Positions 30,601 to 56,733 of a DNA stretch of 64,000 bases are shown here, in pieces. The stretch's first letter is position 1. Each line of letters opens with the position of its first letter. Made by a program: the position numbers and the translations under genes. This stretch comes from a bacterium. GTDB lineage: Bacteria; CG2-30-53-67. The notes below the pieces were generated by a model. It was not told where the DNA came from, did not search any database, and was given only the letters and a program-made list of their open reading frames with translations. The stretch is from NCBI GenBank assembly GCA_919901565.1, contig CAKKPE010000035.1, positions 6,396-70,395 on the forward strand, in the 5' to 3' direction.

Positions 30601-30605
30601 TTAAA

Positions 30606-31440: not shown

Positions 31441-31444
31441 TGAG

Positions 31445-40900: not shown

Positions 40901-41530
40901 ATGGACAATCAAGAGCCGATCATGATTTCCGCTCTGAATCATTACCTCTACTGCCCGCGGCGTTGCGGGCTGGTGCACGTTGAACAGGTCTGGAGTGAGA
41001 ACCTGTACACCATGCGCGGGCGCGACATGCATGAGAATGTTCACGAAGACTCCTCGCATTCTTTGGCTGGTGTACGATATGAACGAGCTCTTCCGATTTG
41101 GTCAAAGCGGCTGCATCTGGTCGGCAAGGCAGATTTGGTAGAGTTTCATGGAGAAATTCCATATCCTGTTGAGTATAAATCGGGAAGACATAAAACATTT
41201 CAGAATGATTACGTTCAGCTCTGCGCACAGGCCATGTGTCTTGAAGAGATGCTGGGGGTGAAGGTGGAGAAGGGCGCTCTTTACTGGCACGGGTCACGGG
41301 AACGGAAAGAGGTAGTCTTCACCGATGAGCTGCGGGGTCGGGTAGAGGAGGTGGCTGCCGAAGTCCATGCCATGATCGCGGAGAAGCGGCTTCCGCCGCC
41401 GGTGAACGACGGGAGGTGCGAAGATTGTTCTTTGAAGGATTCCTGCATGCCGGGAGCGATTGCCAACAAAGGAATGAGAAAGAAGGCGGAAATGGAGTTG
41501 TTTACAATGCCTCATAGGACGGAGGAATAG
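40901..41530 (+). CDS. cas4: CRISPR-associated exonuclease Cas4 (RecB-like, Fe-S)
   Basis: 209 aa. N-terminal Cys (YLYCPRRCGL) and C-terminal CEDCSLKDSC give the 4-Cys cluster. PD-(D/E)xK-like core. Confidence 0.85.
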   Translation: MDNQEPIMISALNHYLYCPRRCGLVHVEQVWSENLYTMRGRDMHENVHEDSSHSLAGVRYERALPIWSKRLHLVGKADLVEFHGEIPYPVEYKSGRHKTFQNDYVQLCAQAMCLEEMLGVKVEKGALYWHGSRERKEVVFTDELRGRVEEVAAEVHAMIAEKRLPPPVNDGRCEDCSLKDSCMPGAIANKGMRKKAEMELFTMPHRTEE

Positions 41531-41532
41531 GA

Positions 41533-42360
41533 ATGGGAAAAAGCATCGCGGTTTTCAAGGGGAAGGAAATCAGGAGAACGCTGTACAAGAACGAGTGGTG
41601 GTTTTCTGTCTCTGATGTTGTAGAAGCGTTAACCGATAGCGCTGATCCAAAGCAGTATATCAAGAAAATAAGACAGCGGGATACAGAGCTTAATTCCTAC
41701 TGGGGTACAATTTGTACCCCCCTTGAAATTATGGCGCCGGACGGGAAAACGCGTGAGACAAACTGCGCAAATACCGAGGGTGTTTTTCGCATCATCCAGT
41801 CCATTCCTTCTCCCAAGGCGGAGCCCTTCAAACGTTGGCTCGCCAAAGTCGGCTATGAGCGGGTGCAGGAGATTGAAGACCCGGAACTCGGTTCGAAGAG
41901 GACGCGGGCGCTCTATAAGGCCAAGGGCTACTCCGACGACTGGATCGAGAAGCGGATGAGGGGTATCGCCATCAGGGAAGAGCTTACGGATGAATGGAAA
42001 AAGCGGGACGTGCGAGAGAAAAGGGAATATGAGATCCTTACCGCGGAAATTGCCAAGGCTGCTTTCGGCATTACGCCTGGGAAACACAAGAAGATCAAAG
42101 GTCTGAAGCGTGAAAACCTGCGGGACCATATGAACGACCTTGAGCTGATCTTCTCGATGCTCGGCGAGGCGGCGACGACCGAGATTACGCGGGTTGATGA
42201 TGCCAAGGGATTTCATGAAAGCAAACATGCTGCTCGCAAGGGCGGAGAAGTTGCCGGAAAGGCGCGAAAAGACCTTGAACAAAAAACCGGGAAACGAGTA
42301 GTGTCGCGCGAAAACTACCTGACGACATCAGAAAGCCGGAAGAAGATCGAGAGGAAGTAA
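41533..42360 (+). CDS. Bro-N domain protein (DNA-damage-inducible protein D / phage antirepressor-like)
   Basis: FKGKEIRRTLYKNEWWFSVSDVVEALT...GVFRIIQSIPSPKAEPFKRWLAKVGYERVQE matches the Bro-N consensus. Starts 2 bp after the cas4 stop. Confidence 0.7.
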   Translation: MGKSIAVFKGKEIRRTLYKNEWWFSVSDVVEALTDSADPKQYIKKIRQRDTELNSYWGTICTPLEIMAPDGKTRETNCANTEGVFRIIQSIPSPKAEPFKRWLAKVGYERVQEIEDPELGSKRTRALYKAKGYSDDWIEKRMRGIAIREELTDEWKKRDVREKREYEILTAEIAKAAFGITPGKHKKIKGLKRENLRDHMNDLELIFSMLGEAATTEITRVDDAKGFHESKHAARKGGEVAGKARKDLEQKTGKRVVSRENYLTTSESRKKIERK

Positions 42361-42412
42361 TGCCGTCATGAATGAACTAATTTTTCATCAGGATCATTGA
42401 GGAGTTTCCTTT

Positions 42413-43555
42413 ATGCCGCAACCACTTGTCCAATACGCCGAACTGCTCGGCCAGATCAAACAGCGGATCAGGCAGGGACAGACCCGCGCCATGCTGTCCG
42501 CTAATGCTGAAATGATCCTGACCTACTGGGATATTGGACGGATGATTCTGGAAAGACAGGAACGGGAAGGATGGGGGACCTCTGTCATTCCACGGTTGTC
42601 CCGTGATCTTCGCAACGAACTGCCGGAAGTAAAAGGATTTTCCGAACGGAATATCAAGCTTATGGTGCAGTTTTATCGTGAATACCCGTCTCTTTCTCCA
42701 ATTGGGCAACGGCCGGTTGCCCAATTGACGGATAAGAACTCGACAGACCAGGAACAGGGTGACGCCGAATTAATGCAACGGCTCGTTGCCCAATTGCTAT
42801 GGGCGCAGAATGTGCTGCTGATGCAAAAAGTCAAAGATATACCGACCCGTTGCTGGTACGCTCAAACCGCAATAGAGCAGGGTTGGAGCCGGGACATTCT
42901 GCTTCATATGATTCAAGGTCGGGCGCACGAACGCCAGGGCAAGGCAATACACAACTTTGAGAGCCGCTTGCCTTCTCCTCAATCTGACTTGGTACAACAG
43001 GCTTTAAAGGACCCCTACATCTTCGATTTCCTCACCCTTGAAGAGCCGTTTCACGAGCGTGAGCTGGAAACTAGCCTGATACGGCATCTGGAGAAATTTC
43101 TGCTGGAGCTCGGGCAGGGGTTTGCCTTTGTCGGACGGCAGTATCATCTCGACATCGGAGAAGAGGATTTTTACATTGACCTTCTTTTCTATCATCTGCG
43201 GCTCCGTTGCTTCGTGGTGATCGAATTGAAGAAGGGCGGTTTCAAACCGGAATACGCGGGCAAGATGAACTTCTACTGCAATGTGGTGGATGACCGGTTA
43301 AAACATGCGGGCGATAATCCTACCATCGGGCTGATTCTCTGTCAGGACAAGAAGTCCGTGCTGGCCGAATACACGTTGCGAGGCGTTTCCAAACCGATCG
43401 GTATTTCTGAATATGAACTGACTCGGGCGCTACCACACAGCCTGAAATCGGCGCTTCCCAGCGTTGAGGAGATTGAACGCGAATTGAGCGAAGATGTTGA
43501 AGGCGTACCTAAGAAGCGCAACAGGAAGAAGTCCGGAAAGAGGATCGCGCAATGA
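42413..43555 (+). CDS. DUF1016 (YhcG-like) PD-(D/E)xK nuclease family protein
   Basis: The N-terminal region matches DUF1016. Nuclease core IDLLFYH...CFVVIELKKGGFKPEYAGKMNFY (D...ExK). Confidence 0.75.
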   Translation: MPQPLVQYAELLGQIKQRIRQGQTRAMLSANAEMILTYWDIGRMILERQEREGWGTSVIPRLSRDLRNELPEVKGFSERNIKLMVQFYREYPSLSPIGQRPVAQLTDKNSTDQEQGDAELMQRLVAQLLWAQNVLLMQKVKDIPTRCWYAQTAIEQGWSRDILLHMIQGRAHERQGKAIHNFESRLPSPQSDLVQQALKDPYIFDFLTLEEPFHERELETSLIRHLEKFLLELGQGFAFVGRQYHLDIGEEDFYIDLLFYHLRLRCFVVIELKKGGFKPEYAGKMNFYCNVVDDRLKHAGDNPTIGLILCQDKKSVLAEYTLRGVSKPIGISEYELTRALPHSLKSALPSVEEIERELSEDVEGVPKKRNRKKSGKRIAQ

Positions 43556-43669
43556 ATACGGAAGTGAAGTCGTGACACTATGTCACGGGTTCTCCATATA
43601 TTCAATTCCTTCTCCGTGCGCTCTGTGGTAAAACTTGACAATACTGAAAAAGCTGAAGGGTGATGATAT

Positions 43670-44728
43670 ATGAAAAAAAGGAATCAAGATGACCCAATGA
43701 AAAGCGATCTGATTCTCTATCAGACGGACGACGGCAGAACCAGAATCGAAGTCCGGTTGCAGGATGAAACGGTATGGATGAGCCAACTGGCCATGGCGGA
43801 GTTGTTTCTAACAACTGTTCCTAACATCAATATCCACTTGAGCAATGTATATAAAGAAGGCGAGCTTTCAGAGACGGCAACGGTTAAGGATTACTTAATA
43901 GTTCGACAGGAAGGTTCCCGGCGGGTTAAGCGTGCGGTCAGGCACTACAATCTTGAAGCCATTATAGCGGTTGGCTACCGGGTTAAATCCAACCGTGGCA
44001 CGCAGTTCCGAAAATGGGCTACCGAAAGACTGAATGAGTATCTCGTAAAGGGCTTTACTCTGGACGACGAACGCCTGAAAGAAGGCAGTAATATTGGTTC
44101 CGACTACTTTGATGAACTGCTGGAGCGGATTCGTGACATACGGTCGAGCGAAAAGCGCTTCTATCAGAAAATTCGCGACATTTATAGGCTTGCGGCTGAT
44201 TACGATCCGAAGGCAGAGGAAACGCTCGAGTTTTTCCGTATCGTCCAGAATAAACTGCACTTTGCCATATCCCATAAGACGGCAGCGGAAATTATTTCTG
44301 AACGGGCGGATTCGTCGAAGCCCAATATGGGATTGACCTCATGGAAGGGATCCAAAGTCCGCAGGGGGGATGTGACAATCGCCAAGAATTACCTGAATCA
44401 GGATGAGTTAGAGCAACTCAATCGCATTGTAGAAATGTATCTGAACTATGCTGAAGACCAGGCTAAACGCCGAAGGCAGGTTTTCATGCGCGACTGGCGG
44501 AAAAAACTGGATGCCTTCCTGCAACTTAACGAAAGAGAGATTCTCGCTGATGCCGGCAAAGTGGCCAAGGAGATAGCAGACAAACTGGCGCTTGATCAAT
44601 ACGATATCTTTAATCACAATCGGCTTGTTATCGAAGCGAAAGAGGAAGCCCTTGCCGATGATGAAGAGTTGAAGCATATAGAATCAGCTATTGAAAACAA
44701 AAAGAAGCAGTGGCGCAAAAATGACTGA
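43670..44728 (+). CDS. RhuM family protein
   Basis: LILYQTDDGRTRIEVRLQDETVWMSQLAMAELF and VGYRVKSNRGTQFRKWATERLNEYLVKGF are characteristic of the RhuM family. Confidence 0.8.
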   Translation: MKKRNQDDPMKSDLILYQTDDGRTRIEVRLQDETVWMSQLAMAELFLTTVPNINIHLSNVYKEGELSETATVKDYLIVRQEGSRRVKRAVRHYNLEAIIAVGYRVKSNRGTQFRKWATERLNEYLVKGFTLDDERLKEGSNIGSDYFDELLERIRDIRSSEKRFYQKIRDIYRLAADYDPKAEETLEFFRIVQNKLHFAISHKTAAEIISERADSSKPNMGLTSWKGSKVRRGDVTIAKNYLNQDELEQLNRIVEMYLNYAEDQAKRRRQVFMRDWRKKLDAFLQLNEREILADAGKVAKEIADKLALDQYDIFNHNRLVIEAKEEALADDEELKHIESAIENKKKQWRKND

Positions 44729-44762
44729 ACCCATACTTCCTCCACTAATGCATGATGGAAAG

Positions 44763-45149
44763 TTACCACTCCGCCCTGATGGGATATTTTGTTATGCGAG
44801 GATCGGGCGTGAGGATGACCAGTCCTCCGGCAATTGCTTGGCAGATGAGAATTCTGTCGAAGGGGTCCTTGTGATAATCCGGGAGTCGGGAAAGCTGCAA
44901 TACCGCCGCTTCGTCCAGCGGCAATGAATCGATATCATGGCGGGTGCGCCACTTCTTGATGAATTCGTGGGGAGTGCCCGGGAGCGGCAACTTGCCCAGC
45001 TTGTGTTTGACGATGATCTCCCATGCGGAGGCAACGCTCAGGTAGACCTCATTGGCGGGATCAGAAAAAAGCCGACGGGCAGTGTCGGACAACTCGGGAC
45101 CTCCCGACACGATCCAAAGAAACGTGCAGGTGTCCAGAAGGATGTTCAC
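44763..45149 (-). CDS. vapC: type II toxin-antitoxin system VapC family toxin (PIN domain)
   Basis: 128 aa. MNILLDTCTFLWIV... PIN-domain acidic residues (D6, E, D). 4-nt overlap with the upstream antitoxin gene. Confidence 0.8.
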   Translation of the reverse strand: MNILLDTCTFLWIVSGGPELSDTARRLFSDPANEVYLSVASAWEIIVKHKLGKLPLPGTPHEFIKKWRTRHDIDSLPLDEAAVLQLSRLPDYHKDPFDRILICQAIAGGLVILTPDPRITKYPIRAEW

Positions 45150-45397
45150 GATTCGGCACCGCCAAACATCGCGAGCATGTCCTCCGGCAACTCCTCGAAG
45201 AACGAGGCAGGCACTGTAAATTTGCCTTTGGACAAGCCTATGGGACGCGGCTTATTCCGATGGGGAGCAAGGGGACGTATTTCAGCGACCGGCTGGTTCC
45301 GCCTGCACACGACGACGATTTCCCCATGCTCCACTTCTTCAAGGTAGTGTGAGAGATGGGTTTTTGCTTCATGAATATTGATTTTTTTCATGGTCAA
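45146..45397 (-). CDS. type II antitoxin (Phd/YefM-like)
   Basis: 83 aa. INIHEAKTHLSHYLEEVEHGEIVVVCRRNQPVAEIRPL matches the Phd/YefM fold pattern. Translationally coupled to vapC. Confidence 0.7.
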   Translation of the reverse strand: MTMKKINIHEAKTHLSHYLEEVEHGEIVVVCRRNQPVAEIRPLAPHRNKPRPIGLSKGKFTVPASFFEELPEDMLAMFGGAES

Positions 45398-45414
45398 ATA
45401 TTAAACCAAGTAGT

Positions 45415-45427
45415 TGACTAAGTCAAG
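45415..45427. promoter_or_regulatory. perfect palindrome TTGACT-A-AGTCAA in the divergent vapB/cas1 promoter region (candidate antitoxin operator overlapping a -35-like hexamer)
   Basis: Sits in the 61-bp intergenic region between the vapB start (45397, minus) and the cas1 start (45459, plus). Confidence 0.3.
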
Positions 45428-45458
45428 GGAAAATTCTCTAAAGCAGAGGGCCATAAAC

Positions 45459-46493
45459 ATGAAACAACTCCTGAATACGCTCTACGTCATGACCCAGGGG
45501 GCATACGTCAATCTTGATCATGAGACCCTGAAGGTGGAAGTGGAAGGCAAGGTGCAGATGCAGGTGCCGCTTCATCATCTTGGGGCTATCGTGACCATGG
45601 GAAACGTGATGATGAGCCCGTTTCTTCTGGGACGCTGTGCGGACGACGGGAGAGCGGTCGTGATCCTGGATCGGAACGGCCAGTTCAAATGCCGAATGGT
45701 AGGCAAGACCACAGGAAACGTCCTGCTCAGACAGGCACAGTATGAGTTTGTCAGGGATAAAGAGAAGTCGACAGGGGTTGCCCGGAACATCGTGGCGGGA
45801 AAGGTTAGAAATTCCCGTGAGGTGCTTCTTCGCGGAGCCAGGGAAACCGAGAATCAGGAAGAGATCTCAGCTCTCAAGAAGGCTGCCGATATTCTCGCCG
45901 ATGCGCTCTTTCGTCTGAAGGATACGCACGATATCGATGTGGTGCGGGGTTATGAAGGTGAGTCGGCTAATGCCTATTTCGGTGTTTTTGACCGGATGGT
46001 GAAGGAGGACGCACGCAAAACGTTCAAGATGAATGGACGAAACAGAAGGCCGCCCCTCGATCCGGTGAACGGCCTGTTGTCGTTTCTCTATACGCTTGTG
46101 CTCAATGATTGCATCTCTGCATTGGAAGGGGTGGGACTTGATTCACAGATGGGTTTTCTCCATGCCCTCAGACCGGGAAGACCTTCCTTGGGCCTGGATT
46201 TGATGGAAGAGTTCCGTTCGCTGCTGGCCGACAGGCTTGCACTGACGCTGATCAATCGCAAACAGATAACGTCAAAGGATTTTGAAGTACGGCCAGGCGG
46301 CGCAACCCTGCTGAACGACGAGGGACGAAAGACTGTCGTGGTGGCGTATCAAAAGAGGAAGCAGGATGAATTCAAACATCCTGTATTAAATGAGAAGGTT
46401 TCGTTTGGTCTGCTCCCCCATGTTCAGGCACGGCTTTTGGCAAGACACCTGAGAGGCGATCTGGAAGTCTATCCACCTTTCTTGTATTCATAG
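45459..46493 (+). CDS. cas1: CRISPR-associated endonuclease Cas1 (type I-C)
   Basis: MKQLLNTLYVMTQGAYVNLDHETLKVEV is a typical Cas1c N-terminus. The 45414 ORF start is probably an over-extension. Conserved acidic and His residues are present. Confidence 0.9.
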   Translation: MKQLLNTLYVMTQGAYVNLDHETLKVEVEGKVQMQVPLHHLGAIVTMGNVMMSPFLLGRCADDGRAVVILDRNGQFKCRMVGKTTGNVLLRQAQYEFVRDKEKSTGVARNIVAGKVRNSREVLLRGARETENQEEISALKKAADILADALFRLKDTHDIDVVRGYEGESANAYFGVFDRMVKEDARKTFKMNGRNRRPPLDPVNGLLSFLYTLVLNDCISALEGVGLDSQMGFLHALRPGRPSLGLDLMEEFRSLLADRLALTLINRKQITSKDFEVRPGGATLLNDEGRKTVVVAYQKRKQDEFKHPVLNEKVSFGLLPHVQARLLARHLRGDLEVYPPFLYS

Positions 46494-46507: not shown

Positions 46508-46798
46508 ATGTGGATCATCGTTGCTTATGATGTGTCAACGGATACTAAGTCCGGACGCCGAAGGCTTCGCCGCGTGGCTCAGGCATGTAAGAACTACGGC
46601 CAGCGTGTTCAAAAATCGGTCTTTGAATGTCAGGTGGATGAGATGAAGTATGAGGCTCTGCGAAAGAAACTCCTGGAAGAAATTAATAAAGAAGAGGATA
46701 ATCTGCGTTTATATCGCCTGACAGAGCCAAGAGATGAACATGTGGAAGAGTATGGGATGGCAAGAACTATTTTCTTTGATGAACCTCTGATCATTTAG
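46508..46798 (+). CDS. cas2: CRISPR-associated endoribonuclease Cas2
   Basis: 96 aa. [41 protein letters not shown]. Confidence 0.9.
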
Positions 46799-46975
46799 TG
46801 CGAACCTGATGCGCTATCGAAAAAGCCGTAAGATTCGTGAAAGATAAAAAACAGCTTTTATCAATATGTTAGGTGATAGTGAAGTGTTTGCATCGAGAAT
46901 ATTTAAGACCGATTTTATGATTTCGCAGAATATGTTTCTCAACATATTGAAATCAAAGCAAAAAAAACAAGAACA
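46799..46975 (+). promoter_or_regulatory. CRISPR leader (AT-rich, between cas2 and first repeat)
   Basis: 177 bp, AT-rich relative to its flanks. Lies at the opposite end of the array from the degenerate terminal repeat. Confidence 0.6.
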
Positions 46976-48949
46976 GAAGCACCCGCCCACGTGGGCGGGT
47001 GAGGATTGAAACTCTGCAGCGGCCAAGGAACTCAGATGCAATGGGATGAAGCACCCGCCCACGTGGGCGGGTGAGGATTGAAACAGCTTTATTGATCTGG
47101 ATGGCCCTCCCCGTTGCCGGAAGCACCCGCCCACGTGGGCGGGTGAGGATTGAAACTGGAACGTCTGCGACTGATCCGGTCCCAGGCCCGGAAGCACCCG
47201 CCCACGTGGGCGGGTGAGGATTGAAACTGAACCCATGATGGTCGATGTCTCGGCCTTTTCACGAAGCACCCGCCCACGTGGGCGGGTGAGGATTGAAACT
47301 CCGAAGCGGTCGGGACCATCCACGCCCTGGCCCGAAGCACCCGCCCACGTGGGCGGGTGAGGATTGAAACAATTCGTCGAGAGTCCCGTTGTGGTGGATA
47401 TTGTGAAGCACCCGCCCACGTGGGCGGGTGAGGATTGAAACAAAGGAACAATGCTGATATCATCTAACGCCAACTGAAGCACCCGCCCACGTGGGCGGGT
47501 GAGGATTGAAACTTTTTTGATATTGATCTTGTCCACCGGGACCACGGGAAGCACCCGCCCACGTGGGCGGGTGAGGATTGAAACCTGATACATCATATAT
47601 CTCCGTCGCCTGGCCCTCGAAGCACCCGCCCACGTGGGCGGGTGAGGATTGAAACAAGATCACGGATGCCAAGGGTATAGCAGGCCCGTCGAAGCACCCG
47701 CCCACGTGGGCGGGTGAGGATTGAAACAGTTTGGCATGATGGTATGAACTCCTTGCCTCAGGAAGCACCCGCCCACGTGGGCGGGTGAGGATTGAAACAG
47801 AGTGTCCCATATCCCGTCATTGACGATCAGGTCGAAGCACCCGCCCACGTGGGCGGGTGAGGATTGAAACATCCCCTCCAGCAGTTCAGCCGCTGCCAGA
47901 AGAAAGAAGCACCCGCCCACGTGGGCGGGTGAGGATTGAAACCTGTAAGACCTTACCGTTAAAGACCGGCCTCCCAGGAAGCACCCGCCCACGTGGGCGG
48001 GTGAGGATTGAAACAATATTATGGTAAGAAAGTACGTCACCTCTCCCGGCGAAGCACCCGCCCACGTGGGCGGGTGAGGATTGAAACCAAGTAGGATCGC
48101 AGAACTTCGCCAAATCCAAAGGAAGCACCCGCCCACGTGGGCGGGTGAGGATTGAAACGGGTTTGACCCCCCGGGGGGCTCGGCCGATGGGTCGAAGCAC
48201 CCGCCCACGTGGGCGGGTGAGGATTGAAACAATCTGCCTGTGTAGTTTAACCCATCCATTGCCCAGAAGCACCCGCCCACGTGGGCGGGTGAGGATTGAA
48301 ACGGGTTTGACCCCCCGGGGGGCTCGGCCGATGGGTCGAAGCACCCGCCCACGTGGGCGGGTGAGGATTGAAACAGATGCGACAATGCTTTGCCTCGACG
48401 ATCTCGGTAGAAGCACCCGCCCACGTGGGCGGGTGAGGATTGAAACCCCGGTACGACCGGGAGAAGGAAGACTTTTATATGAAGCACCCGCCCACGTGGG
48501 CGGGTGAGGATTGAAACCCAGCCCGGGTGACGGGATCTTTGCGTGGGATAATGAAGCACCCGCCCACGTGGGCGGGTGAGGATTGAAACTTTACAGCGTG
48601 GACATGTCATGGTCGGCTCTCCTTCGAAGCACCCGCCCACGTGGGCGGGTGAGGATTGAAACGAAAACCACTTACTCACAGTCTGGCGATGCCGATTGAA
48701 GCACCCGCCCACGTGGGCGGGTGAGGATTGAAACGCGGAGTGCAGCCGCAGGACGATATCCTCCAAGCCGAAGCACCCGCCCACGTGGGCGGGTGAGGAT
48801 TGAAACCATAAATGTTTGATCCCTTGGCCGCCCGAACCCGGGAAGCACCCGCCCACGTGGGCGGGTGAGGATTGAAACATGCGATCTCAGGCGGAGGCCT
48901 CCGGGGAATACGAAGCACCCGCCCACGTGAGCTGGTGAGGATTGAAACT
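46976..48949 (+). CRISPR. CRISPR array, 28 repeats / 27 spacers; repeat GAAGCACCCGCCCACGTGGGCGGGTGAGGATTGAAAC (37 nt), spacers 34-36 nt
   Basis: Period ~72 bp. The repeat holds a perfect 22-nt palindrome, CACCCGCCCACGTGGGCGGGTG, and ends in the ATTGAAAC 5'-handle sequence. The last repeat (48913-48949) is mutated (GGGCGGGTG to GAGCTGGTG). Spacers 17 and 19 are identical. Confidence 0.95.
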
Positions 48950-49097
48950 TTCTCTGACACATCCGAATTGGATGCTCCGTGTGAAGAGCCATCAACTCCG
49001 TTTACACGGTGGCGAAACCTTGATCCATCATCCGCCCAGGAAATAGCAGACGCGGCGTGGAACGAACTTTGTTTCAGGGGTCTATTGGAGGAAAAAA

Positions 49098-49373
49098 ATG
49101 AAACGATCTGAAAGAAACGAAATAAGGATTTGCCCCAAGTGCCTCCATTCTAAGTATCTCGAGGCGACAGCCGTCATGCAACGGGGGAAGCTTGTCACAA
49201 CCCGCTTGCCGAGACACACCCTGGACGACCGGGGAATCAAATGGTGGCCAAGCACCAGGTGTATCACATGCGATTACGTCGGCATGGTAGAAGACGTGAT
49301 CGCCGACCGAAACTTTATAAGGATCATAAAGGAAGCACCCGCCCACGTGGGGATGAACTGCATGATATGGTGA
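49098..49373 (+). CDS. small zinc-ribbon protein (CPxC...CxxC), hypothetical, embedded between the array's terminal repeat and an orphan partial repeat
   Basis: GGAGG sits 7 nt upstream of the ATG. MKRSERNEIRICPKCLHS...WWPSTRCITCDY. The last ~13 codons read through the partial repeat at 49332, so the true C-terminus is uncertain. Confidence 0.35.
   Translation: MKRSERNEIRICPKCLHSKYLEATAVMQRGKLVTTRLPRHTLDDRGIKWWPSTRCITCDYVGMVEDVIADRNFIRIIKEAPAHVGMNCMIW
49332..49352 (+). repeat. orphan partial CRISPR repeat (first 20 nt of the repeat)
   Basis: GAAGCACCCGCCCACGTGGG matches repeat positions 1-20 exactly, then diverges. Confidence 0.7.
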
Positions 49374-49423
49374 ATGGGAAAGAGGGTATTTCAGGATCTG
49401 AGGCCTGATTCGGCCAAACTTTT

Positions 49424-49556
49424 TTATTCCCCGTAATGGGTCCTGGCCCTTTCGAGGTAAACGATCCTTTTCTTTTCGTCAATACTGTAAACAATCCTGT
49501 CCTTATAGGTCAGACGATAAGAATAACGGACGCTTTGACGTGGATGCCCCGAAGCT
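49424..49556 (-). pseudogene. RelE/ParE-family toxin C-terminal remnant (no start codon)
   Basis: Minus-strand translation ...RQSVRYSYRLTYKDRIVYSIDEKKRIVYLERARTHYGE* matches the RelE/ParE C-terminal consensus (YRxxYxxD...IxIxRIGHRxDVY-like). The upstream part is absent. Confidence 0.5.
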
Positions 49557-49583
49557 CATCCCGCCTCCTCAAAAATTGAAACT
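49552..49583 (+). repeat. highly degenerate CRISPR repeat relic (GAAGC...CCCGCC...AATTGAAAC)
   Basis: Shares the 5' GAAGC, an internal CCCGCC and the 3' ATTGAAAC with the array repeat. About 3 periods from the orphan partial repeat. Confidence 0.4.
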
Positions 49584-49696
49584 TCTTGATTTTGCCTCTT
49601 CACACTGATAGATTAAGCGAAACAGACGCAGATGGGAAATGGATCTTATTGAAATCTCGAATCCGAATTGGGAATAATTGACATCGCTTGTTTCAA

Positions 49697-51409
49697 ATGG
49701 AATCCTTAACGCACAACAACATAACGATCTTCTTCCTCGCAATCGGCATACTGCTGGCATCGGCGCGGCTTTTCGGTGAGATCGCCCACCGGATTCACCA
49801 GCCTGCCGTGCTCGGCGAGATTCTTGCGGGGATACTGCTGGGGCCGACCGTCCTCGGATTCTTCGCTCCGGACGTGAGCGTCAACCTGTTCCCCATGCAA
49901 GGACCGGTCACCATCGGGATTGACAGCCTGACCACACTCGCCATTGCCCTGTTCCTGCTGGTGGCGGGGATGAAGGTAGATCTTTCCACGGTCTGGCGCC
50001 AGGGACGATCCGCCCTCACCGTCGGCATCGCAGGCATCGTCATCCCCTTTACTCTTGGATTCTGCGCGGCCTGGCTGATCCCCCGGCTTATGGGAAGCGA
50101 ACCCGGCACCGACACGATGATCTTCGCCCTGTTCTTTGCCACTGCACTCTCTATTACCGCACTGCCCGTGGTGGCCAAGATCCTCCTTGAGATCAATCTC
50201 TTCCGCACGGACCTCGGCATGATCATCGTTACTGCGGCGATTTTAAATGACCTGATCGGATGGATCATCTTCGCGGTCATACTCGGCATGATCGGGGGAG
50301 GGGCATCTTCAGGACACGGCCTCGGACAGACCATTATGTTGACGCTTGGATTCTCAGTCCTGATCCTGACCATCGGGCGATGGCTGATCGACCGCATTCT
50401 CCCATGGATACAGGCGCACACAAGGGGGCCCGGCGGCATCCTGGGCTTTTGCATCTCGGCTGCCCTCTTATGTGCCGCCTTCACCGAGTGGATCGGCATC
50501 CACGCGATCTTCGGCGCATTCCTCTGCGGCGTGGCCCTGGGAGACTCGCCCCATCTGCGTGAACACACGCGTACCACGTTCGATCAGTTCATTTCGTTCA
50601 TCTTTGCACCGTTATTCTTTGCCAGTATCGGGTTGAAAGTAAATTTCATTCAAAATTTCGATCTCCCCCTTGTCCTCACCGTTATCGTGATCGCCACGGC
50701 AGGAAAGGTCTTCGGCTGCGGGTTCGGGGCGATCTGGAGCGGACTGACGCAGAGAGAGGCATGGGCCATCGGTTTCGGTATGAACGCCAGAGGCGCCATG
50801 GAGATCATCCTCGGCCTCCTCGCCCTTCAGGCGGGAATTATCCGGGAGCCCATGTTTGTCGCCCTCGTGGTCATGGCCCTTCTCACATCCATGACGAGCG
50901 GCACGATCATGCAGAAAATTCTCCGCCGCAAGGCGCCGGTCCGCTTGACTGACTTCCTCTCTCCAAAAGTTTACCGCAGGGATCTTCAGGCCAGGGACCG
51001 AGGGGAGGCTATCCTGAAACTCTGCACAATCGCCTGCGAAGGGAGCGGGCTGGTTCCTGAAAATGTATATGAGGCCGTATGGAAGCGGGAACAGATCGTC
51101 TCCACCGGCGTGGGCCACGGTGTCGCCATTCCCCACGCCCGGATCGACGCCCTGAAGCAGCCGCTCCTTGCGCTTGGAATTTCAAAGAACGGCGTGGATT
51201 TCAACGCCCCGGACGGACAGCCGGCCCGCCTGATCTTCCTTATTATCATCCCCGGCCATGATCCTGAGTCGCAGCTCGAACTCCTCTCGGATATCAGCCG
51301 CACATTCCAGGACCCGGCTATGGTCAAGCGGGCCCTTGAGGCGGATAACTACACCGAACTGCTCGCCCTCATCAACACCGCCGAACCGGCGATAAAGAGC
51401 CCGGTCTGA
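49697..51409 (+). CDS. cation:proton antiporter (CPA2/Kef-like) fused to a C-terminal PTS EIIA(Ntr)-type domain
   Basis: About 12 TM helices (MESLTHNNITIFFLAIGILLASARLFGEIAHRIHQPAVLGEILAGILLGP). The C-terminal ~150 aa has the EIIA type-2 His region (GHGVAIPHARI). Start at 49688 or 49697. Confidence 0.8.
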   Translation: MESLTHNNITIFFLAIGILLASARLFGEIAHRIHQPAVLGEILAGILLGPTVLGFFAPDVSVNLFPMQGPVTIGIDSLTTLAIALFLLVAGMKVDLSTVWRQGRSALTVGIAGIVIPFTLGFCAAWLIPRLMGSEPGTDTMIFALFFATALSITALPVVAKILLEINLFRTDLGMIIVTAAILNDLIGWIIFAVILGMIGGGASSGHGLGQTIMLTLGFSVLILTIGRWLIDRILPWIQAHTRGPGGILGFCISAALLCAAFTEWIGIHAIFGAFLCGVALGDSPHLREHTRTTFDQFISFIFAPLFFASIGLKVNFIQNFDLPLVLTVIVIATAGKVFGCGFGAIWSGLTQREAWAIGFGMNARGAMEIILGLLALQAGIIREPMFVALVVMALLTSMTSGTIMQKILRRKAPVRLTDFLSPKVYRRDLQARDRGEAILKLCTIACEGSGLVPENVYEAVWKREQIVSTGVGHGVAIPHARIDALKQPLLALGISKNGVDFNAPDGQPARLIFLIIIPGHDPESQLELLSDISRTFQDPAMVKRALEADNYTELLALINTAEPAIKSPV

Positions 51410-51498
51410 CTTGACAACCCTGCGGTATCCTGATAACGTTACACCCTGAGAGCTTAGATAAACGTAAAATATAACCGACTGAAATAAATAACATCGCG

Positions 51499-52464
51499 GT
51501 GGTCATGGACCCAAGAATTGCTTTACTGATCCCATGCTTCAATGAAGAAGCCACCATCGAAAAGGTTGTAAGGGATTTCAGGAAGATCCTTCCAAAAGCG
51601 GAAATCTACGTTTACGACAACAACAGCACGGATAAAACAGCGGAAGCCGCCCTCAAGGCCGGAGCAATCGTACGGCATGAATCCCATCAGGGCAAAGGAT
51701 ATGTAGTCCGCCGCATGTTCAGAGAGGTGGATGCGGATATTTACGTCATGGTGGATGGAGACGGCACCTATCCGGCCGATGATGTCCATTCACTCATCCA
51801 GCCGGTTTCTTCGGGTAGGGCCGATATGTGTGTTGGAGGCAGAATTGCAGAAAAACATAGCGGAGCCTTCAGAAGATTTCACATTGTTGGAAACCACCTG
51901 ATAAAAAATGTCGTAAACAGTCTCTTCGGAGCAGACTTATCTGATATTCTTTCCGGCTACCGATGTTTCAATCATCATTTTGTTACGTCCATACCCCTGC
52001 TGAGCAAGGGGTTTGAGGTCGAAGTGGAAATGACGATCCAGGCGCTGGACAAGGGGCTGGTCATCCAGGAAATCGAACTTCCCTACAGAGAACGGCCTTC
52101 CGGAAGCTCGTCTAAACTTCGAACCTTCAGAGACGGTTTCCGTGTGTTGCTGACCATATTTAATATTTTCAAGGATTACAAACCCCTCGCATTTTTTTTC
52201 GCTGTCTCTATATTTCTCCTCCTCCTGAGTCTTGTTCTTGGATGGAACGCCTTCCATGAATTTTCCGAAACAGGCCGGGTGATTCATCCTGCAACCACGG
52301 TTGCGGCCGCATGTCTGGCTGTCTTCTCTGTAATTTCCCTGGTAACAGGCATTCTGCTGGATACCATTAATCGGCGCTACAAAGAATTGTATGTTTTGAT
52401 GACACGCCGTTCTCCTGATCATAAAGACAGTATCCCGGCAGGCTTCCCTGATCACAGAACCTGA
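51499..52464 (+). CDS. family 2 glycosyltransferase (dolichyl-/polyprenyl-phosphate sugar transferase-like) with C-terminal TM segments
   Basis: ALLIPCFNEEATIEKVV...YVYDNNSTDKT...VMVDGDGTY gives the GT2 DxD context. Confidence 0.8.
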   Translation: MVMDPRIALLIPCFNEEATIEKVVRDFRKILPKAEIYVYDNNSTDKTAEAALKAGAIVRHESHQGKGYVVRRMFREVDADIYVMVDGDGTYPADDVHSLIQPVSSGRADMCVGGRIAEKHSGAFRRFHIVGNHLIKNVVNSLFGADLSDILSGYRCFNHHFVTSIPLLSKGFEVEVEMTIQALDKGLVIQEIELPYRERPSGSSSKLRTFRDGFRVLLTIFNIFKDYKPLAFFFAVSIFLLLLSLVLGWNAFHEFSETGRVIHPATTVAAACLAVFSVISLVTGILLDTINRRYKELYVLMTRRSPDHKDSIPAGFPDHRT

Positions 52465-52606
52465 CGTAGACGGCTTATGAACAAGGGAAATGGGCTCCTG
52501 CATGAGCGTGACCCCGATCCGGTCCTTCGGCAGTTTGTGGATCAGTGCCTGAGGGACAGGGGATACATGCCTGTGGGCTGGCGTTAGCCAAAAACCCCGT
52601 CATACT

Positions 52607-53911
52607 TTAGCCTTTTCTTCCTCTCTCAATCAGGGCGCGGATCGGCTGCAATCCGTAGGGGCTCCCTTTTTCGATGGCGGTCAGCACGGTCCCGCCCCCG
52701 GTGAAGAAATAATATCTCGCATTGTCCATCACGGAGAGATAAAGACCCGGGCAGAGATTCTTGAATTCCTGAAGCGTATCCCCGCCGCCGTACATCTTGA
52801 TCGCATCCCTGTTCTCGTCAATTGCATGGTCCAGGGCCTGGGAACCCCCGGTGAAATGCGGGGTGAACCCCATCACCGCATTGACGAGGATCGTACGGGC
52901 ATCGAGAATGGTCCGGTGCACCTTTTCGTCTCCGAACGAAGCCGGGTCGATGTCCACCCCATAGCCGTATTCGCGTCCGGCTTCAAGGTCTGTAACAGAG
53001 ATGGTCTTGTAGTGCCCCTCTTTTTTCCCTTCAAGCGTATCCGACTCCACGATAAACGGAAGTTCGATGATCTTCTTTGTGACCTTGTCCTTTTCAACGA
53101 GTTCCCGGGCAAGGTTGATGTCTGAATCGGAAACGCCCCTGATCCTGACGCCGTATTTTGCACAGAGATAGGTATTGTAGATCACACCGCCCAGGATGAT
53201 CCGGTCGACCTTGTCATAGATGGCATAGAGCGGCCCGATCTTGGTATCGTATTTCGACCCGGCCACCACGGCGAGAAAGGGCCTTTCTGGTTCGAGCACC
53301 CGTTCCAGGTTCTTGATCTCCTGCTGCATGAGAAACCCGGCGCACGAAGGCAGGTGGCTGACGATGTCATAGGTGGATGCATGGGGCTGCCATGAGCCGA
53401 ATGCGTCATTGACATAGATATCGGCAAGCCCGGCGAGCTGGAGGGCGAACCTCTCCCGCTCGGCGCCCTTGGACTCCTCCCCGAAAAACCATCTGGTGTT
53501 GGGAAGATAGATGCCGCTGACCTTCCTGCTCCGCAGATTCCGTATGGCGATGTTGATGGAGGTATCAATGCCCATGATTCCTTTTCCAGGGTCAATTTCA
53601 AATTCGGGGACGAAGAACCGTGTATGCAGCTTCTGTTCGATATAGTCGACAATCGGTCTCACCGACTCCCCTTCCCTGCATTCGATCTTCCCTGTCTCCT
53701 TGTCGCGGGGCCGCCCGATATGGGTCATGAGGATGGGCCGACCGCCCCTCTCGACAATGTGGAAGAGGGTACCGATGGTTCGGTCTATCCTGTAGGGGTC
53801 TTTGATCTCGCCGTTCTTCACCACATTGTGGTCAAATCGTACAAGGACTGTCTTGTCCTCCAGCTCGGCATCCTGAATGGATGGAAGCACATCTCCTTTT
53901 GTCCTGTCCAT
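52607..53911 (-). CDS. divergent phosphoglycerate kinase family protein
   Basis: VLVRFDHNVVKNGEIKD...PILMTHIGRP, YVNDAFGSWQPHAS, AVVAGSKYDTKIG...ILGGVIYNT, YGGGDT and YFFTGGG align with the PGK N-terminal and C-terminal domain motifs. The usual FGTAHRAH substrate Arg context is altered. Start placed at the internal Met; the ORF extends to 53944. Confidence 0.6.
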   Translation of the reverse strand: MDRTKGDVLPSIQDAELEDKTVLVRFDHNVVKNGEIKDPYRIDRTIGTLFHIVERGGRPILMTHIGRPRDKETGKIECREGESVRPIVDYIEQKLHTRFFVPEFEIDPGKGIMGIDTSINIAIRNLRSRKVSGIYLPNTRWFFGEESKGAERERFALQLAGLADIYVNDAFGSWQPHASTYDIVSHLPSCAGFLMQQEIKNLERVLEPERPFLAVVAGSKYDTKIGPLYAIYDKVDRIILGGVIYNTYLCAKYGVRIRGVSDSDINLARELVEKDKVTKKIIELPFIVESDTLEGKKEGHYKTISVTDLEAGREYGYGVDIDPASFGDEKVHRTILDARTILVNAVMGFTPHFTGGSQALDHAIDENRDAIKMYGGGDTLQEFKNLCPGLYLSVMDNARYYFFTGGGTVLTAIEKGSPYGLQPIRALIERGRKG

Positions 53912-53953
53912 GAAGCCTCCTCTATCTAATGTTCGTATTCTCAAAACCTGCCG

Positions 53954-54424
53954 TCACATCGGAAGGATACGTCGCGCGGTCCAGTAATAATTCCGCCAGT
54001 AAGGATCATTGACGTTTGAGATCATGACACCTCTGCTGCTGGACACATGCACAAATTCCCCGCGGCTCAGATAGATCCCCACATGGGGTTTCTTTGAAGA
54101 CAGCAGAAAGAATACGAGGTCCCCGGCTTTAAGCCGCTTTCCGGAGACCGGCGTGCCCATACGGGCCTGCTCTTCTGCTCTACGGGGGAGTTCAATCCCA
54201 AATAGCTTCTGATTGAGCACCTTCACAAAACCGGAGCAGTCTATGCCGTCCCTGCCGTTCCCGCCCAGGAGGTGCGGGGCCTTCTCCCATGCTTCGGTCT
54301 CGGCCCGGAGGCGTATCTCAACATCACTCGTGCGCAGGGCGCCGTGCGCCTCGGGCCGGACCAGAGGCCTGGGGGCGCAGCCCATGAGGATAATAAACAG
54401 GAGAACGACCATTCCCCCGATCAT
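53954..54424 (-). CDS. NlpC/P60 (C40) family peptidase, lipoprotein
   Basis: Lipoprotein signal MIGGMVVLLFIILMGCAP. Catalytic Cys context GIDCSGFV and the His region HVGIYL. Confidence 0.75.
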   Translation of the reverse strand: MIGGMVVLLFIILMGCAPRPLVRPEAHGALRTSDVEIRLRAETEAWEKAPHLLGGNGRDGIDCSGFVKVLNQKLFGIELPRRAEEQARMGTPVSGKRLKAGDLVFFLLSSKKPHVGIYLSRGEFVHVSSSRGVMISNVNDPYWRNYYWTARRILPM

Positions 54425-54716
54425 TCCTGAAGTGCGGGCCGGACTGCTGATACAAGGGGGCAATGGGATGCACCTCATTATGGGCCTTGAAGGGATATGC
54501 AATCTGCGCTCCTGAAGCCGCCATTGCGGCCGTACACCTGGACCGGGACACATCTCAATTATATGAAGGGTCATGCATAATATTCAAGCATAAAGTTCGA
54601 CCGGGGGAAATGAGACTGATTTATTATTTGTGCATTGTAAATCAGCATTTAGGATGGTATGATCCTTCAAGGCTCGTATCAGCCGGCCTTTCGTCAGGTT
54701 CCCTAATCCATGGGCC

Positions 54717-55403
54717 ATGGGAAAAATGAAAAACAGAACATGGTTCTCTTCAGTCTGCATTTCTCTCCTGTTCGCTGCCCAGCCCCTTCCAGGATTCGCC
54801 GGAGAACCCTTTGTCCTCATCGACGATTTCGAAGCAGGCCTCAGGCCCCGTTGGGAGAAGAAAATCTTCAAGGGGGAGACCCGGTATACGGTCATCCGGA
54901 TGGAAGGGAGCGGCTGCCTCAAGGCCGAGAGCCATGCAGCGGCTTCGGGCCTTGTCTACAAGATTAAATACGACACAAGGGATTATCCGGTCCTGGCCTG
55001 GCGATGGAAGGTGGAAAATATCCTTCATAAAGGGGATGAGAGGACCCGCCGGGGGGATGATTATGCGGCACGGGTCCATGTGGTTTTCCCGCACTTCATC
55101 CCGGCCCTGACCAGAAGCATCAACTATGTCTGGGCCAATAGACTCCCCAGGGGGGAGAGATGGCCCAACCCGTACTATTCAAGGGCCATGATGATCGCTC
55201 TGGAGAGCGGAGAAGAAAAAACCGGGGCGTGGGTCCCGGAAAAAAGAAATGTCTTCGAGGATTACAGAACATGCTTTGGGGAAGCCCCCCCCTTTGCAGG
55301 CGCCATCGCCATCATGACCGATACGGACAACACCGGAGAATCCGCGGTGGCCTATTACGATGACATTAAGCTTGAGACCATCTTTCCCGCCTCAGAACCA
55401 TAA
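54717..55403 (+). CDS. DUF3047 domain-containing protein (secreted)
   Basis: Signal peptide, then FVLIDDFEAGLRPRWEKKIFKGETRYTV... typical of DUF3047. Confidence 0.75.
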   Translation: MGKMKNRTWFSSVCISLLFAAQPLPGFAGEPFVLIDDFEAGLRPRWEKKIFKGETRYTVIRMEGSGCLKAESHAAASGLVYKIKYDTRDYPVLAWRWKVENILHKGDERTRRGDDYAARVHVVFPHFIPALTRSINYVWANRLPRGERWPNPYYSRAMMIALESGEEKTGAWVPEKRNVFEDYRTCFGEAPPFAGAIAIMTDTDNTGESAVAYYDDIKLETIFPASEP

Positions 55404-55439
55404 CATCGGTTATGACCGCTTAAGCGGTACGGCAGCGTC

Positions 55440-56213: not shown

Positions 56214-56294
56214 CAGCAGGGAACTCCTTTAATAACAAAATTCGAATATGATTATACATCATTTGACCGACCCATTGCAAAGATTTTATTCGCC

Positions 56295-56588
56295 TCAGAT
56301 ATCTCCGGCCTTGGCGAGCATCTTGTCGAATTTTTCCACGCTGAGTGCCGGCGAGGTAGCGAACGAAATCCCGGTCAGCTTGTTCACGCCGATTGAGGCC
56401 ACCATGGCCTCTTCCATGGTGGGGAAATCCACGATAAAAACCAGATCGTGCTCACCCAGCAGGGCATACATGGCTTTAATGTTCCCGCCATGTCTCTTGA
56501 TCAGGGCCACGGCCTTGTCTGTCCGGTCCGGGCTGACATGATTCAATGACTCCGAAGAATATTTGCCGAACATTAAAAATGCAGGCAT
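56295..56588 (-). CDS. GYD domain-containing protein
   Basis: 97 aa. MPAFLMFGKYSSESL...MYALLGEHDLVFIVDFPTMEEAM matches GYD family proteins. Confidence 0.75.
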   Translation of the reverse strand: MPAFLMFGKYSSESLNHVSPDRTDKAVALIKRHGGNIKAMYALLGEHDLVFIVDFPTMEEAMVASIGVNKLTGISFATSPALSVEKFDKMLAKAGDI

Positions 56589-56733
56589 ATGCCTCCCTCC
56601 TTTCGCTCAAGAAAACACCTTGTTAAGAAACGTATTTTAAACGAATATTGTTTTGGACTATACATCCGGCTCCTCTGATTGGCAAATCCGGGGCAGTAAT
56701 TTGCCTATGCTGCCATGAAATTTGATGGGCTTC

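Follow-up and report, generated by a model that had tools for sequence, protein, structure and literature searches.

A half CRISPR repeat, a truncated zinc-ribbon gene and a toxin remnant in the far flank of a type I-C array

The terminal repeats of CRISPR arrays can be degenerate or truncated (PMC8047081), toxin-antitoxin pairs are found scattered through CRISPR-cas loci (PMC4390879), and mobile elements, including Tn7-like array-targeting transposons, insert into arrays (PMC11837452). The 64,000-nt stretch of bacterial DNA analysed here (hereafter the window; contig CAKKPE010000035.1) carries a type I-C array followed by a small zinc-ribbon gene, a piece of a toxin gene and sequences resembling the repeat, which raises the question of what the DNA between the last repeat and the next housekeeping gene represents. 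A sequence-only reading had seen in it the distal end of a dying array, with genes lodged in former spacer positions and one candidate array-associated factor. The features that bear on this question are the following, in positions of the window.

46799-46975: array leader, directly after cas2
46976-48948, plus strand: type I-C CRISPR array, 28 repeats of 37 nt (27 identical) and 27 spacers of 33-36 nt
48912-48948, plus strand: terminal repeat, 35/37 to the consensus (G19A, G22T)
48949-49331, plus strand: non-repeat segment of 383 nt, with the terminal repeat on its left and the half repeat on its right
49098-49373, plus strand: zinc-ribbon ORF of 91 codons, with a Shine-Dalgarno (SD) sequence at 49087-49091
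49332-49351, plus strand: half repeat, exact repeat positions 1-20 (5' arm, loop and 3 nt of the 3' arm)
49424-49534, minus strand: 3' remnant of a Txe/YoeB-like toxin gene, last 33-36 codons plus stop (49426-49424)
49551-49582, plus strand: possible decayed repeat 1, GAAGC TCAT CCCGCC TCCTCAAAA ATTGAAAC, 32 nt; equivocal
49619-49655, plus strand: possible decayed repeat 2, 20/37 ungapped, ending in ATTGAAAT; not significant alone
49649-49678, plus strand: promoter-like site TTGAAA-18-AATAAT, at the end of the scar region
49688-51409: Na+/H+ exchanger-EIIA fusion, the first housekeeping gene past the scar, behind the promoter-like site

The array and an exact half repeat beyond it

The repeat consensus is GAAGCACCCGCCCACGTGGGCGGGTGAGGATTGAAAC (37 nt), and the locus is assigned to type I-C by a complete cas set (cas5d, cas8c/csd1, cas7, cas3, cas4, cas1 and cas2, identified with Pfam and NCBIfam) together with a repeat ending in ATTGAAAC; Cas8c, at 25.5 bits versus a cutoff of 218.65, is highly divergent, and cas3 is placed after cas7, an atypical gene order. 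The Rfam family CRISPR-DR9 (RF01322) matches the 27 identical repeats at 54.5 bits and the terminal repeat at 37.7 bits (E 6.7e-7), the latter under the gathering score of 45 bits. G19A and G22T each disrupt one stem pair of the terminal repeat, whose mutated state had been recognized correctly but located 1 nt off, at 48913-48949. No self-targeting spacer is present among the 27. The description of the array as dying is contradicted by the identity of 27 of its 28 repeats and by the full type I-C cas set, degeneracy being confined to the flank past the last repeat; the array looks outwardly active and healthy.

In that flank, positions 49332-49351 match the consensus at 20 of 20 positions; the next base differs from repeat position 21. 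A given 20-mer is expected by chance ~1e-7 times in 128 kb, so this copy of the first 20 nt, already seen in the earlier reading, is real and repeat-derived; all other matches outside the array to any part of the repeat are 12 nt or shorter. Its exact identity to the present consensus assigns it to this repeat family, from which, judging by its letters, it was probably derived recently. The 20-nt sequence is absent from viral contigs, and its three non-array matches in JGI metagenomes are consistent with chance at the size of that collection. As it has neither the 3' arm of the hairpin nor the ATTGAAAC handle, the half repeat should not be processable by Cas5d; it gives no match to the CRISPR-DR9 covariance model at E ≤ 1. 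A candidate degenerate 3' part (GGTGA...GAAAG, 49369-49382) was rejected, an extra colinear 5-mer being expected by chance in about 1 case in 3.

Such junctions could in principle have been made by a chimeric join at CRISPR repeats during metagenome assembly, the source being a MAG contig, and the only ~7x coverage of a second contig, from an ENA assembly, which breaks inside the array, would fit this explanation. This second contig is nevertheless 100% identical over 48177-59001, and the junctions are thus not the product of a single assembly: two separately deposited assemblies agree over 10.8 kb across all of them. A misjoin in the repeat would, moreover, restore the complete repeat instead of leaving 20 nt of it next to unique DNA, and 20 nt is below typical assembly k-mers. 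We regard an artefact as very unlikely.

A rare zinc-ribbon gene ending in the half repeat, and a toxin remnant

The gap that follows the terminal repeat is, as had been proposed, far above the 33-36 nt of the spacers, with a corrected length of 383 nt instead of 381. The zinc-ribbon gene fills all but its first 149 nt, for which no homologue was detectable. An open frame of 53 codons, which spans the stretch from the terminal repeat to 49111, likewise lacks homologues anywhere and matches no PHROG. We confirmed the 91-codon ORF and its good SD (GGAGG, then 6 nt, then ATG). The encoded protein carries two CxxC pairs, C12xxC15 and C55xxC58, and has a sole homologue in a search covering 1.84 billion cluster representatives and about 15 billion proteins: P0002, of 82 aa, 47% identical (E 6.7e-19) without gaps over residues 1-79. 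All four cysteines are invariant in this two-member alignment, which agrees with the earlier zinc-ribbon assignment; the family is genuine but very rare, an orphan with two members among ~15 billion proteins.

At the protein level, homology to P0002 extends as far as E79, the codon with which the repeat begins, and DNA similarity ends at AAAGGA, a gene-native microhomology at the left junction whose final GA forms the first two repeat bases (GAAGC...). Since homology breaks off where the half repeat enters the frame, the final 12 codons (80-91), encoded by the half repeat and the DNA that follows it, are repeat-derived or junk. The native gene is thus retained over 79 of its 82 codons, its C-terminus swapped for repeat-derived codons. 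If the reading as an ordinary scar is right, annotators should treat the C-terminal 12 codons of this 91-aa "hypothetical protein" as a repeat-junction artefact, and array-finding tools should stop the array at the terminal repeat.

Could this protein be a working CRISPR-linked factor, whether regulator, accessory or captured anti-CRISPR, made from array read-through? Its SD and start are intact, its four cysteines conserved and its gene almost full-length; no plus-strand terminator is predicted from the leader through the array to the ORF, which could therefore still be translated from read-through. On the other side stand the replacement of the native C-terminus and the single homologue, which lies on a 977-bp contig with no CRISPR repeat; the proposed comparison of homologues for proximity to arrays thus yields one member and no array on its short contig. 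That contig holds an Lcl_C/DUF1566 gene upstream of P0002 and two tiny ORFs downstream, one encoding 70 Cys-rich residues and the other a small membrane protein. These neighbours left no trace beside the window ORF (tblastn, E ≤ 1), their only match in the window being a weak Lcl_C hit (E 0.011) ~47 kb away. Searches against PADLOC, PHROGs, phage, plasmid and viral-contig collections and a PDB profile search gave no match for the zinc-ribbon protein, Pfam and NCBIfam yielded none above threshold, and no HTH/aca-like neighbour is found here or on the contig of the homologue, just as no spacer of the array is self-targeting. The similarity to RNHCP (PF12647; 16.5-17.1 bits, E 0.006-0.008) is under the 24-bit gathering threshold, and P0002 does not match that family. 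An AF2 model built from the two-sequence alignment (mean pLDDT 48.9) was too poor for a fold search. We found no evidence of a functional tie of the protein to CRISPR, and such a role, advanced in the earlier reading as regulator, anti-CRISPR or array-associated factor, appears improbable; the family would gain interest only with more members beside CRISPR loci or with an effect on type I-C activity.

The fragment on the minus strand, described earlier as the C-terminal end of a RelE/ParE toxin with no start codon, is real, but its homologous part comprises 33-36 codons and not 44, and its affiliation can be refined to Txe/YoeB. The open frame has 43 codons (49555-49427) behind an in-frame stop at 49556-49558, with homology only over ~49534-49427. 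Against Txe/YoeB-like toxins its protein identity is 72-88% (best E 1.1e-11 in 5.8 billion sequences), and identity at the DNA level, of 74-75%, is limited to 49426-49527. It matches residues 52-88 of 89 of a YoeB structure (PDB 7v6w, E 0.0027); from the family profiles PF06769 and TIGR02116, the latter is matched at positions 49-80 of 80 (E 0.0016), its 18.6 bits remaining below the cutoff of 51.8 since no more than part of the gene is left. No start codon or N-terminal half was found, and no frame showed N-terminal similarity. Relatives (contigs L088-L091) carry a Phd/YefM antitoxin gene (PF02604) upstream of the toxin; tblastn with two antitoxins gave only chance matches in 48900-49800, and no such antitoxin was found in the window. 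The toxin fragment is to be annotated as a pseudogene.

Possible decayed repeats past the half repeat

The degenerate relic of the earlier reading lies at 49551-49582 and not at 49552-49583, and the evidence for it is split. On one side, relic 1 is the sole non-array match to the end-anchored pattern GAAGC-N12-36-ATTGAAAC, for which 0.06 occurrences per window are expected. On the other, its colinear block score (≥19) is reached at 5 other window sites and 2.2 times per shuffle, it is not among the top matches of a Smith-Waterman scan, a periodic pair score as high as its own occurs at 381 background loci, and neither it nor relic 2 (49619-49655) matches CRISPR-DR9 at E ≤ 1. With four generic measures unremarkable, relic 1 is equivocal. 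For relic 2, a score of at least 20/37 is also reached at 21 background positions. A second end-anchored pattern, GAAG-N20-32-GAAAC, has 2 matches in the 740-nt trailer versus ~0.07 from background, one of which begins 34 nt after the terminal repeat; both patterns were picked after inspection of the sequence.

These elements bear on the view that the array was once longer, or was split, and was invaded by mobile DNA, the half repeat and the relics (48983-49018, 49551-49582 and 49619-49655) being former repeats and the gene fragments occupying former spacer positions of a region that is non-functional today. The half repeat shares its strand with the array, the end-anchored patterns are enriched in the trailer, and the spacings are near multiples of 72-73 nt. 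Against this, the relics are inseparable from background in the generic tests and missed by the covariance model, and they would need to have decayed to 40-55% identity while the half repeat is at 20/20 and the terminal repeat at 35/37. The patterns were, in addition, chosen post hoc, and a similar "relic", the ATGAAAC at the start of the ORF, proved to be native gene sequence since P0002 carries ATGAAAC too. We hold a longer array to be unlikely, albeit the most probable of the alternatives, and an older array whose cas genes have since disappeared may apply to the weak relics only. The earlier reading is borne out insofar as foreign, gene-bearing DNA does separate the terminal repeat from a genuine piece of the repeat; the relic at 49551-49582, on which the idea of several former spacer positions rests, is not statistically secure.

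Ectopic repeat pieces could also specify a crRNA-like regulatory RNA (CreA, CreR, crlRNA) or a repeat-mimic anti-CRISPR RNA that, loaded on Cascade, represses a promoter by partial complementarity. Isolated degenerate repeats that act in regulation are known from within or beside cas loci (PMC8501985, PMC9458426, PMC10120712, PMC10651486) and, as in CreTA, CreR, crlRNA mini-arrays and the solitary repeats of phage Racr described there, repeat-derived sequence is found here outside the array and beside the cas locus. Relic 1 has an intact ATTGAAAC handle, and an 11-nt stretch after the array (48961-48971) exactly matches the exchanger promoter region (49661-49671). Unlike in those systems, however, the half repeat is without the 3' arm and the crRNA-handle part. 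The 11-nt match falls at spacer positions 13-23, with no seed and TTA at the PAM position, and one such match is near chance expectation for the region (~0.08). For five candidate pseudo-spacers, no TTC-flanked 12-nt seed match with up to 2 mismatches, at a promoter or elsewhere, exists in the 64-kb window. No Rfam family or stable RNA structure was found in the trailer (z-scores -0.95 to +1.9), and the relics have no predicted hairpin. We give this explanation hardly any weight.

Origin of the scar and comparison with known systems

From the features, homologies and breakpoints observed, we infer an order of events, a mechanism and an absence of function, and consider it reasonably probable (about 0.6) that the 740 nt from the last repeat to the exchanger gene are a non-functional patchwork of mobile DNA insertions and later illegitimate-recombination deletions. 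A first piece is a fragment of a mobile or accessory gene cluster with a nearly complete zinc-ribbon gene, whose last three codons and stop were lost at the junction with the CRISPR repeat. The second, the 20 nt of repeat, marks a breakpoint, either as the leftover of a genuine array unit, the rest of which was deleted from a point inside the palindrome, or as a short copy from the neighbouring array made by template switching at the hairpin-forming repeat. The third is a yoeB-type toxin gene reduced to its 3' third, in opposite orientation and with its antitoxin gone. That 79 of 82 codons, the SD and the start were kept is a mild coincidence for a random deletion end, and could reflect selection for function.

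Two further observations were counted against the patchwork. The right boundary of the segment falls on a repeat edge, as a spacer boundary would, and the distances from the half repeat to relic 1 (219 = 3 x 73 nt) and from the ATTGAAAC of relic 1 to the ATTGAAAT end of relic 2 (73 nt) are near-whole periods, as would fit a once-longer array.

A capture of gene-sized foreign DNA exactly between repeat edges as "giant spacers", by Cas1-Cas2-Cas4 or repeat-guided recombination, with the zinc-ribbon gene now a CRISPR-linked factor through read-through, seems very improbable. We rejected a double crossover between spacer and protospacer as the source of the segment: at 33-36 nt before its right boundary there is no TTC PAM, and the spacers match neither the segment, the contig of P0002 (L002) nor the toxin contigs. 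The segment has no similarity to the leader, as a second array with its own leader might have shown, and inverted or direct repeats around it are short and at chance level, with no transposon-like ends. The best match to the exchanger among 185,579 species genomes is ~60% identical, too distant for a synteny comparison, and the ancestral state is accordingly not reconstructable.

The patchwork has partial counterparts among known systems. As in degenerate terminal repeats (PMC8047081), the 3'-half substitutions of the last repeat break its dyad symmetry while internal repeats are identical; in those cases only the last repeat is concerned, whereas here an exact half repeat follows 383 nt further on, with a gene between. 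As with mobile elements in arrays (insertion sequences, or Tn7-like transposons, PMC11837452), foreign coding DNA has repeat sequence of this array, on the array's own strand, at both ends; here, however, it is a 383-nt fragment that shows no transposase, no transposon ends and no target-site duplication, and one of the two flanking repeats breaks off at position 20. As in toxin-antitoxin modules at CRISPR-cas loci (PMC4390879; type II Phd/YefM-YoeB/Txe), YoeB/Txe sequence adjoins the array, with the C-terminal ...RARTHYGE motif common to full-length relatives; unlike working modules, it consists of 33-36 codons with no start and no antitoxin, that is, a pseudogene fragment. The whole looks like ordinary genome scarring and not a new CRISPR accessory module, and would, if this is true, document the far flank of an array in a defence island gathering and eroding mobile DNA.

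The array lies in a defence island with further rearrangement scars, in line with the patchwork. Three candidates for defence or hitch-hiker genes (Bro-N, YhcG and RhuM) sit, together with an orphan ORF, between cas4 and cas1. Upstream of cas5d, truncated starts of a second cas3 are contained in a 105-nt direct repeat, which flanks an accessory block of 3.4 kb.

The type I-C locus and its array

The array belongs to a type I-C CRISPR-Cas locus, in which an AT-rich leader lies directly 3' of cas2 and is followed by the repeats.

Features of the locus (window coordinates)
35115-35750, cas5d
35734-37797, cas8c, very divergent
37829-38689, cas7
38690-40891, cas3
40901-41530, cas4
41533-42360, Bro-N/PDC-S13, PADLOC candidate defence singleton
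42413-43555, YhcG-DUF1016/PDC-S02, PADLOC candidate defence singleton
43670-44728, RhuM/PDC-S05, PADLOC candidate defence singleton
44937-45347, orphan ORF (136 aa), 3' of RhuM/PDC-S05
45414-46493, cas1
46508-46798, cas2
46976-48948, + strand, CRISPR array of 28 repeats (37-nt unit GAAGCACCCGCCCACGTGGGCGGGTGAGGATTGAAAC) and 27 spacers of 33-36 nt

The repeats are assigned to CRISPR-DR9 (Rfam), and their 3' end, ATTGAAAC, implies that the array is read on the + strand, which places the trailer (the ~740 nt between the terminal repeat and a Na+/H+ exchanger gene) at the leader-distal end. The sequence-only reading took the array to be dying. This does not hold, because 27 of the 28 repeats share one sequence and the set of cas genes is complete; degeneration is confined to the flank past the last repeat.

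Two further observations concern this locus. A 35-nt spacer, GGGTTTGACCCCCCGGGGGGCTCGGCCGATGGGTC, is present twice (48159-48193 and 48303-48337), the copies standing two units apart, and the next spacer differs after each copy, contrary to a simple two-unit block duplication. In cas8c, only the C-terminal 110 residues match Cas8c/Csd1 (23.5 bits for Pfam and 25.5 for NCBIfam), far under the family cutoffs, which makes the large-subunit gene extremely divergent.

A repeat-truncated gene and a toxin fragment in the trailer

Most coordinates of the sequence-only reading were one base too high.

Features of the trailer
48912-48948, + strand, terminal repeat, with two changes against the consensus, G>A at position 19 and G>T at position 22
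48949-49331, gap of 383 nt after the terminal repeat
48983-49018, third putative relic, of form GAAG...GAAAC, starting exactly 34 nt after the terminal repeat
49098-49373, + strand, zinc-ribbon ORF with GGAGG six bases 5' of ATG and two CxxC pairs
49332-49351, + strand, half repeat, exact copy of repeat positions 1-20
49555-49427, - strand, frame of the toxin remnant, reading ASGHPRQSVRYSYRLTYKDRIVYSIDEKKRIVYLERARTHYGE to a stop
49551-49582, + strand, "degenerate relic" with the anchored pattern GAAGC-N12-36-ATTGAAAC
49619-49655, + strand, second putative relic, 20/37 ungapped, ending in ATTGAAAT

Each substitution in the terminal repeat breaks a pair in the 9-bp stem, and its CRISPR-DR9 score is 37.7 bits versus 54.5 for the other array repeats. 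The exact 20-nt copy noticed past the array is confirmed, and it certainly derives from the CRISPR repeat, since a given 20-mer is expected only ~1e-7 times in 128 kb; elsewhere outside the array, matches to any part of the repeat reach at most 12 nt in the whole window. An assembly artefact is an unlikely source of the junctions: a second public contig (L001, from ENA) is 100% identical across 48177-59001, and a misjoin within a repeat would regenerate a whole repeat, not half of one.

A word-indexed search of 5.8 billion proteins matched the zinc-ribbon protein solely to its own entry, which is annotated as hypothetical and comes from an unclassified groundwater MAG. Exhaustive phmmer against 1.84 billion cluster representatives yielded a single true homologue, P0002, of 82 aa (47% identity, E 6.7e-19); the remaining matches were spurious, to repetitive proteins. 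The alignment of the window protein with P0002 is gapless over residues 1-79, and they have in common the four Cys, an N-terminal MKRSER and a C-terminal FIRI(I/L)KE, which identifies them by sequence as members of a real, extremely rare family. P0002 ends in ...KEGMK, the window protein in ...KE-APAHVGMNCMIW; the codon for E79, GAA, coincides with bases 1-3 of the half repeat, and DNA-level similarity stops at AAAGGA. From where homology ends, it follows that the native 3' end of the gene has been replaced at the junction with the repeat. The 91-codon ORF thus stands as to its Shine-Dalgarno sequence, ATG, CxxC pairs and family, but its last 12 codons are, on this comparison, repeat-derived or random. 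In Pfam the window protein had a below-threshold RNHCP match and P0002 no relevant one; searches of NCBIfam, PHROGs, PADLOC, PDB profiles, phages, plasmids and viral contigs gave no match to the zinc-ribbon protein, and its AlphaFold model (mean pLDDT 48.9) is too poor for use. Expression by read-through from the putative leader promoter is plausible, because no + strand terminator-like site is predicted ahead of the ORF.

The toxin remnant matches S. aureus YoeB (PDB 7v6w; residues 52-88 of 89, E 0.0027), TIGR02116 Txe/YoeB (profile positions 49-80 of 80, E 0.0016) and a PHROG RelE-like toxin family. The decisive match is to a set of Txe/YoeB-like proteins, 72-88% identical (best E 1.1e-11 among 5.8 billion sequences). 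Compared with these relatives, homology begins only at ~49534 (...S-x-x-YSYRL), and DNA similarity is 74-75% over 49426-49527, stopping at both ends. The relatives carry a Phd/YefM antitoxin just upstream; neither an antitoxin nor the N-terminal half of the toxin left a trace in the window. The remnant is a pseudogene fragment of 33-36 codons; within the RelE superfamily it falls with YoeB/Txe, not with RelE/ParE as first read.

The three putative decayed repeats are less secure. The anchored pattern is expected 0.06 times per window, and 49551-49582 is its only match outside the array. Tests not tailored to the observed relic were all unremarkable, and do not set it apart: colinear exact-block chains scoring at least 19 occur at five further window sites (2.2 per shuffle), the relic is missing from the top Smith-Waterman matches, and a search of 841 nt with the CRISPR-DR9 covariance model missed it at E<=1. 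The ATTGAAAT end of the second relic lies exactly 73 nt past the ATTGAAAC of the first, and a looser anchored pattern has 2 matches in the trailer versus ~0.07 expected from the background rate. A repeat origin of all three is possible but unproven, because the 20/37 level is reached 21 times in background, the score of the observed periodic pair is equalled or exceeded at 381 background loci, and a look-alike "ATGAAAC" at the start of the zinc-ribbon ORF is native gene sequence, as P0002 shares it.

Origin of the trailer mosaic

The trailer runs from the terminal repeat through 149 nt of unassigned origin, the zinc-ribbon gene without its last three codons, the 20-nt repeat, 72 nt of unassigned origin and the reversed yoeB 3' end to ~150 nt, holding the weak relics and a predicted exchanger promoter (TTGAAA-18-AATAAT), before the exchanger gene. 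In the simplest account, mobile DNA, comprising a cassette of small genes and a TA cassette, would have inserted in or beside the distal array end and afterwards been trimmed by illegitimate-recombination deletions. The half repeat would mark one deletion junction, and may be either the stump of a real array unit or filler from the neighbouring array, produced by template switching at the palindromic repeat. It breaks just past the hairpin loop, and its left junction has 2-6 nt of microhomology. Its exact agreement with the present consensus, against a mutated terminal repeat and heavily decayed putative relics, argues for a recent event.

P0002 is encoded on a 977-bp groundwater contig (L002), which contains no repeat. 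Its gene stands in a compact run of small genes: Lcl_C/DUF1566 precedes it, and a Cys-rich ORF of 70 aa (ATGA overlap) and an ORF for a small membrane protein come after. A weak match of the Lcl_C product to a phage PHROG (E 7e-6) hints that the run comes from a mobile element. No trace of these neighbours was found near the window ORF; the only match at E<=1 is a weak one to Lcl_C (E 0.011), ~47 kb away.

A history of rearrangement of this kind can also be read from other parts of the locus. Three hitch-hiker or candidate defence genes and the orphan ORF (41533-45347) separate cas4 from cas1. Just upstream of cas5d, a 3.4-kb accessory block with pRiA4_ORF3, ORF6N and Schlafen/AlbA_2 genes is flanked by a direct repeat of 105 nt, whose copies (31443-31544 and 34867-34969) lie 3.42 kb apart and are 93-98% identical. 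Within the repeat are truncated starts of another cas3, different from the intact one (a cas3-HD-like ORF, MTTKPDPIAHVTEDGR...): a 53-codon copy just upstream of cas5d (34923-35084) and, at 31498, a stub of 19 codons. The intact cas3 stands, atypically, after cas7, and its N-terminus is unlike these starts, which suggests that the interference module was replaced or rearranged.

Documented cases exist of degenerate terminal repeats (PMC8047081), of toxin-antitoxin genes scattered among CRISPR-cas modules (PMC4390879) and of arrays with inserted mobile elements (PMC11837452), and the present locus is a further, somewhat untidy example. Specific to it is the gene-repeat fusion, which gives an orphan zinc-ribbon protein an artificial C-terminal tail.

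Possible functions and other window features

A role for the trailer repeat pieces as a crRNA-like regulator (CreTA, CreR, crlRNA) or repeat mimic has real precedent in ectopic degenerate repeats (PMC8501985, PMC9458426, PMC10120712, PMC10651486). Against it, the half repeat is missing both the 3' arm and the handle, RNA structure prediction gave nothing unusual, and a TTC-flanked seed match at <=2 mismatches within the window was found for none of five candidate pseudo-spacers. A single 11-nt match connects the trailer with the exchanger promoter: the exact direct repeat ATCCGAATTGG, at 48961-48971 (just after the terminal repeat) and 49661-49671 (exchanger promoter spacer region). It falls outside the seed, the PAM position is occupied by TTA, and the match was judged to be chance. 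Nothing found speaks positively for the zinc-ribbon protein as an anti-CRISPR or accessory factor: an aca-like neighbour, a self-targeting spacer and a CRISPR-adjacent homologue are all lacking. That gene-sized DNA was captured between repeat edges, with the ORF serving CRISPR, is highly improbable.

Some 5 kb upstream of cas5d and the other cas genes lies a gene (29406-30434) for an HTH-WYL-WCX regulator, a type often linked to defence loci. At 30470-31314, a ~49-nt unit with many TTGAAC motifs is present six times, overlapping or flanking a 23S-rRNA-IVP-family ORF and the next ORF; a palindromic element of 50 nt has copies at 31399-31448 and 32864-32913. Rfam also reports, at the gathering threshold, two features.

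60481-60629, + strand, c-di-GMP-I riboswitch (48.3 bits)
12929-13000, - strand, tRNA gene
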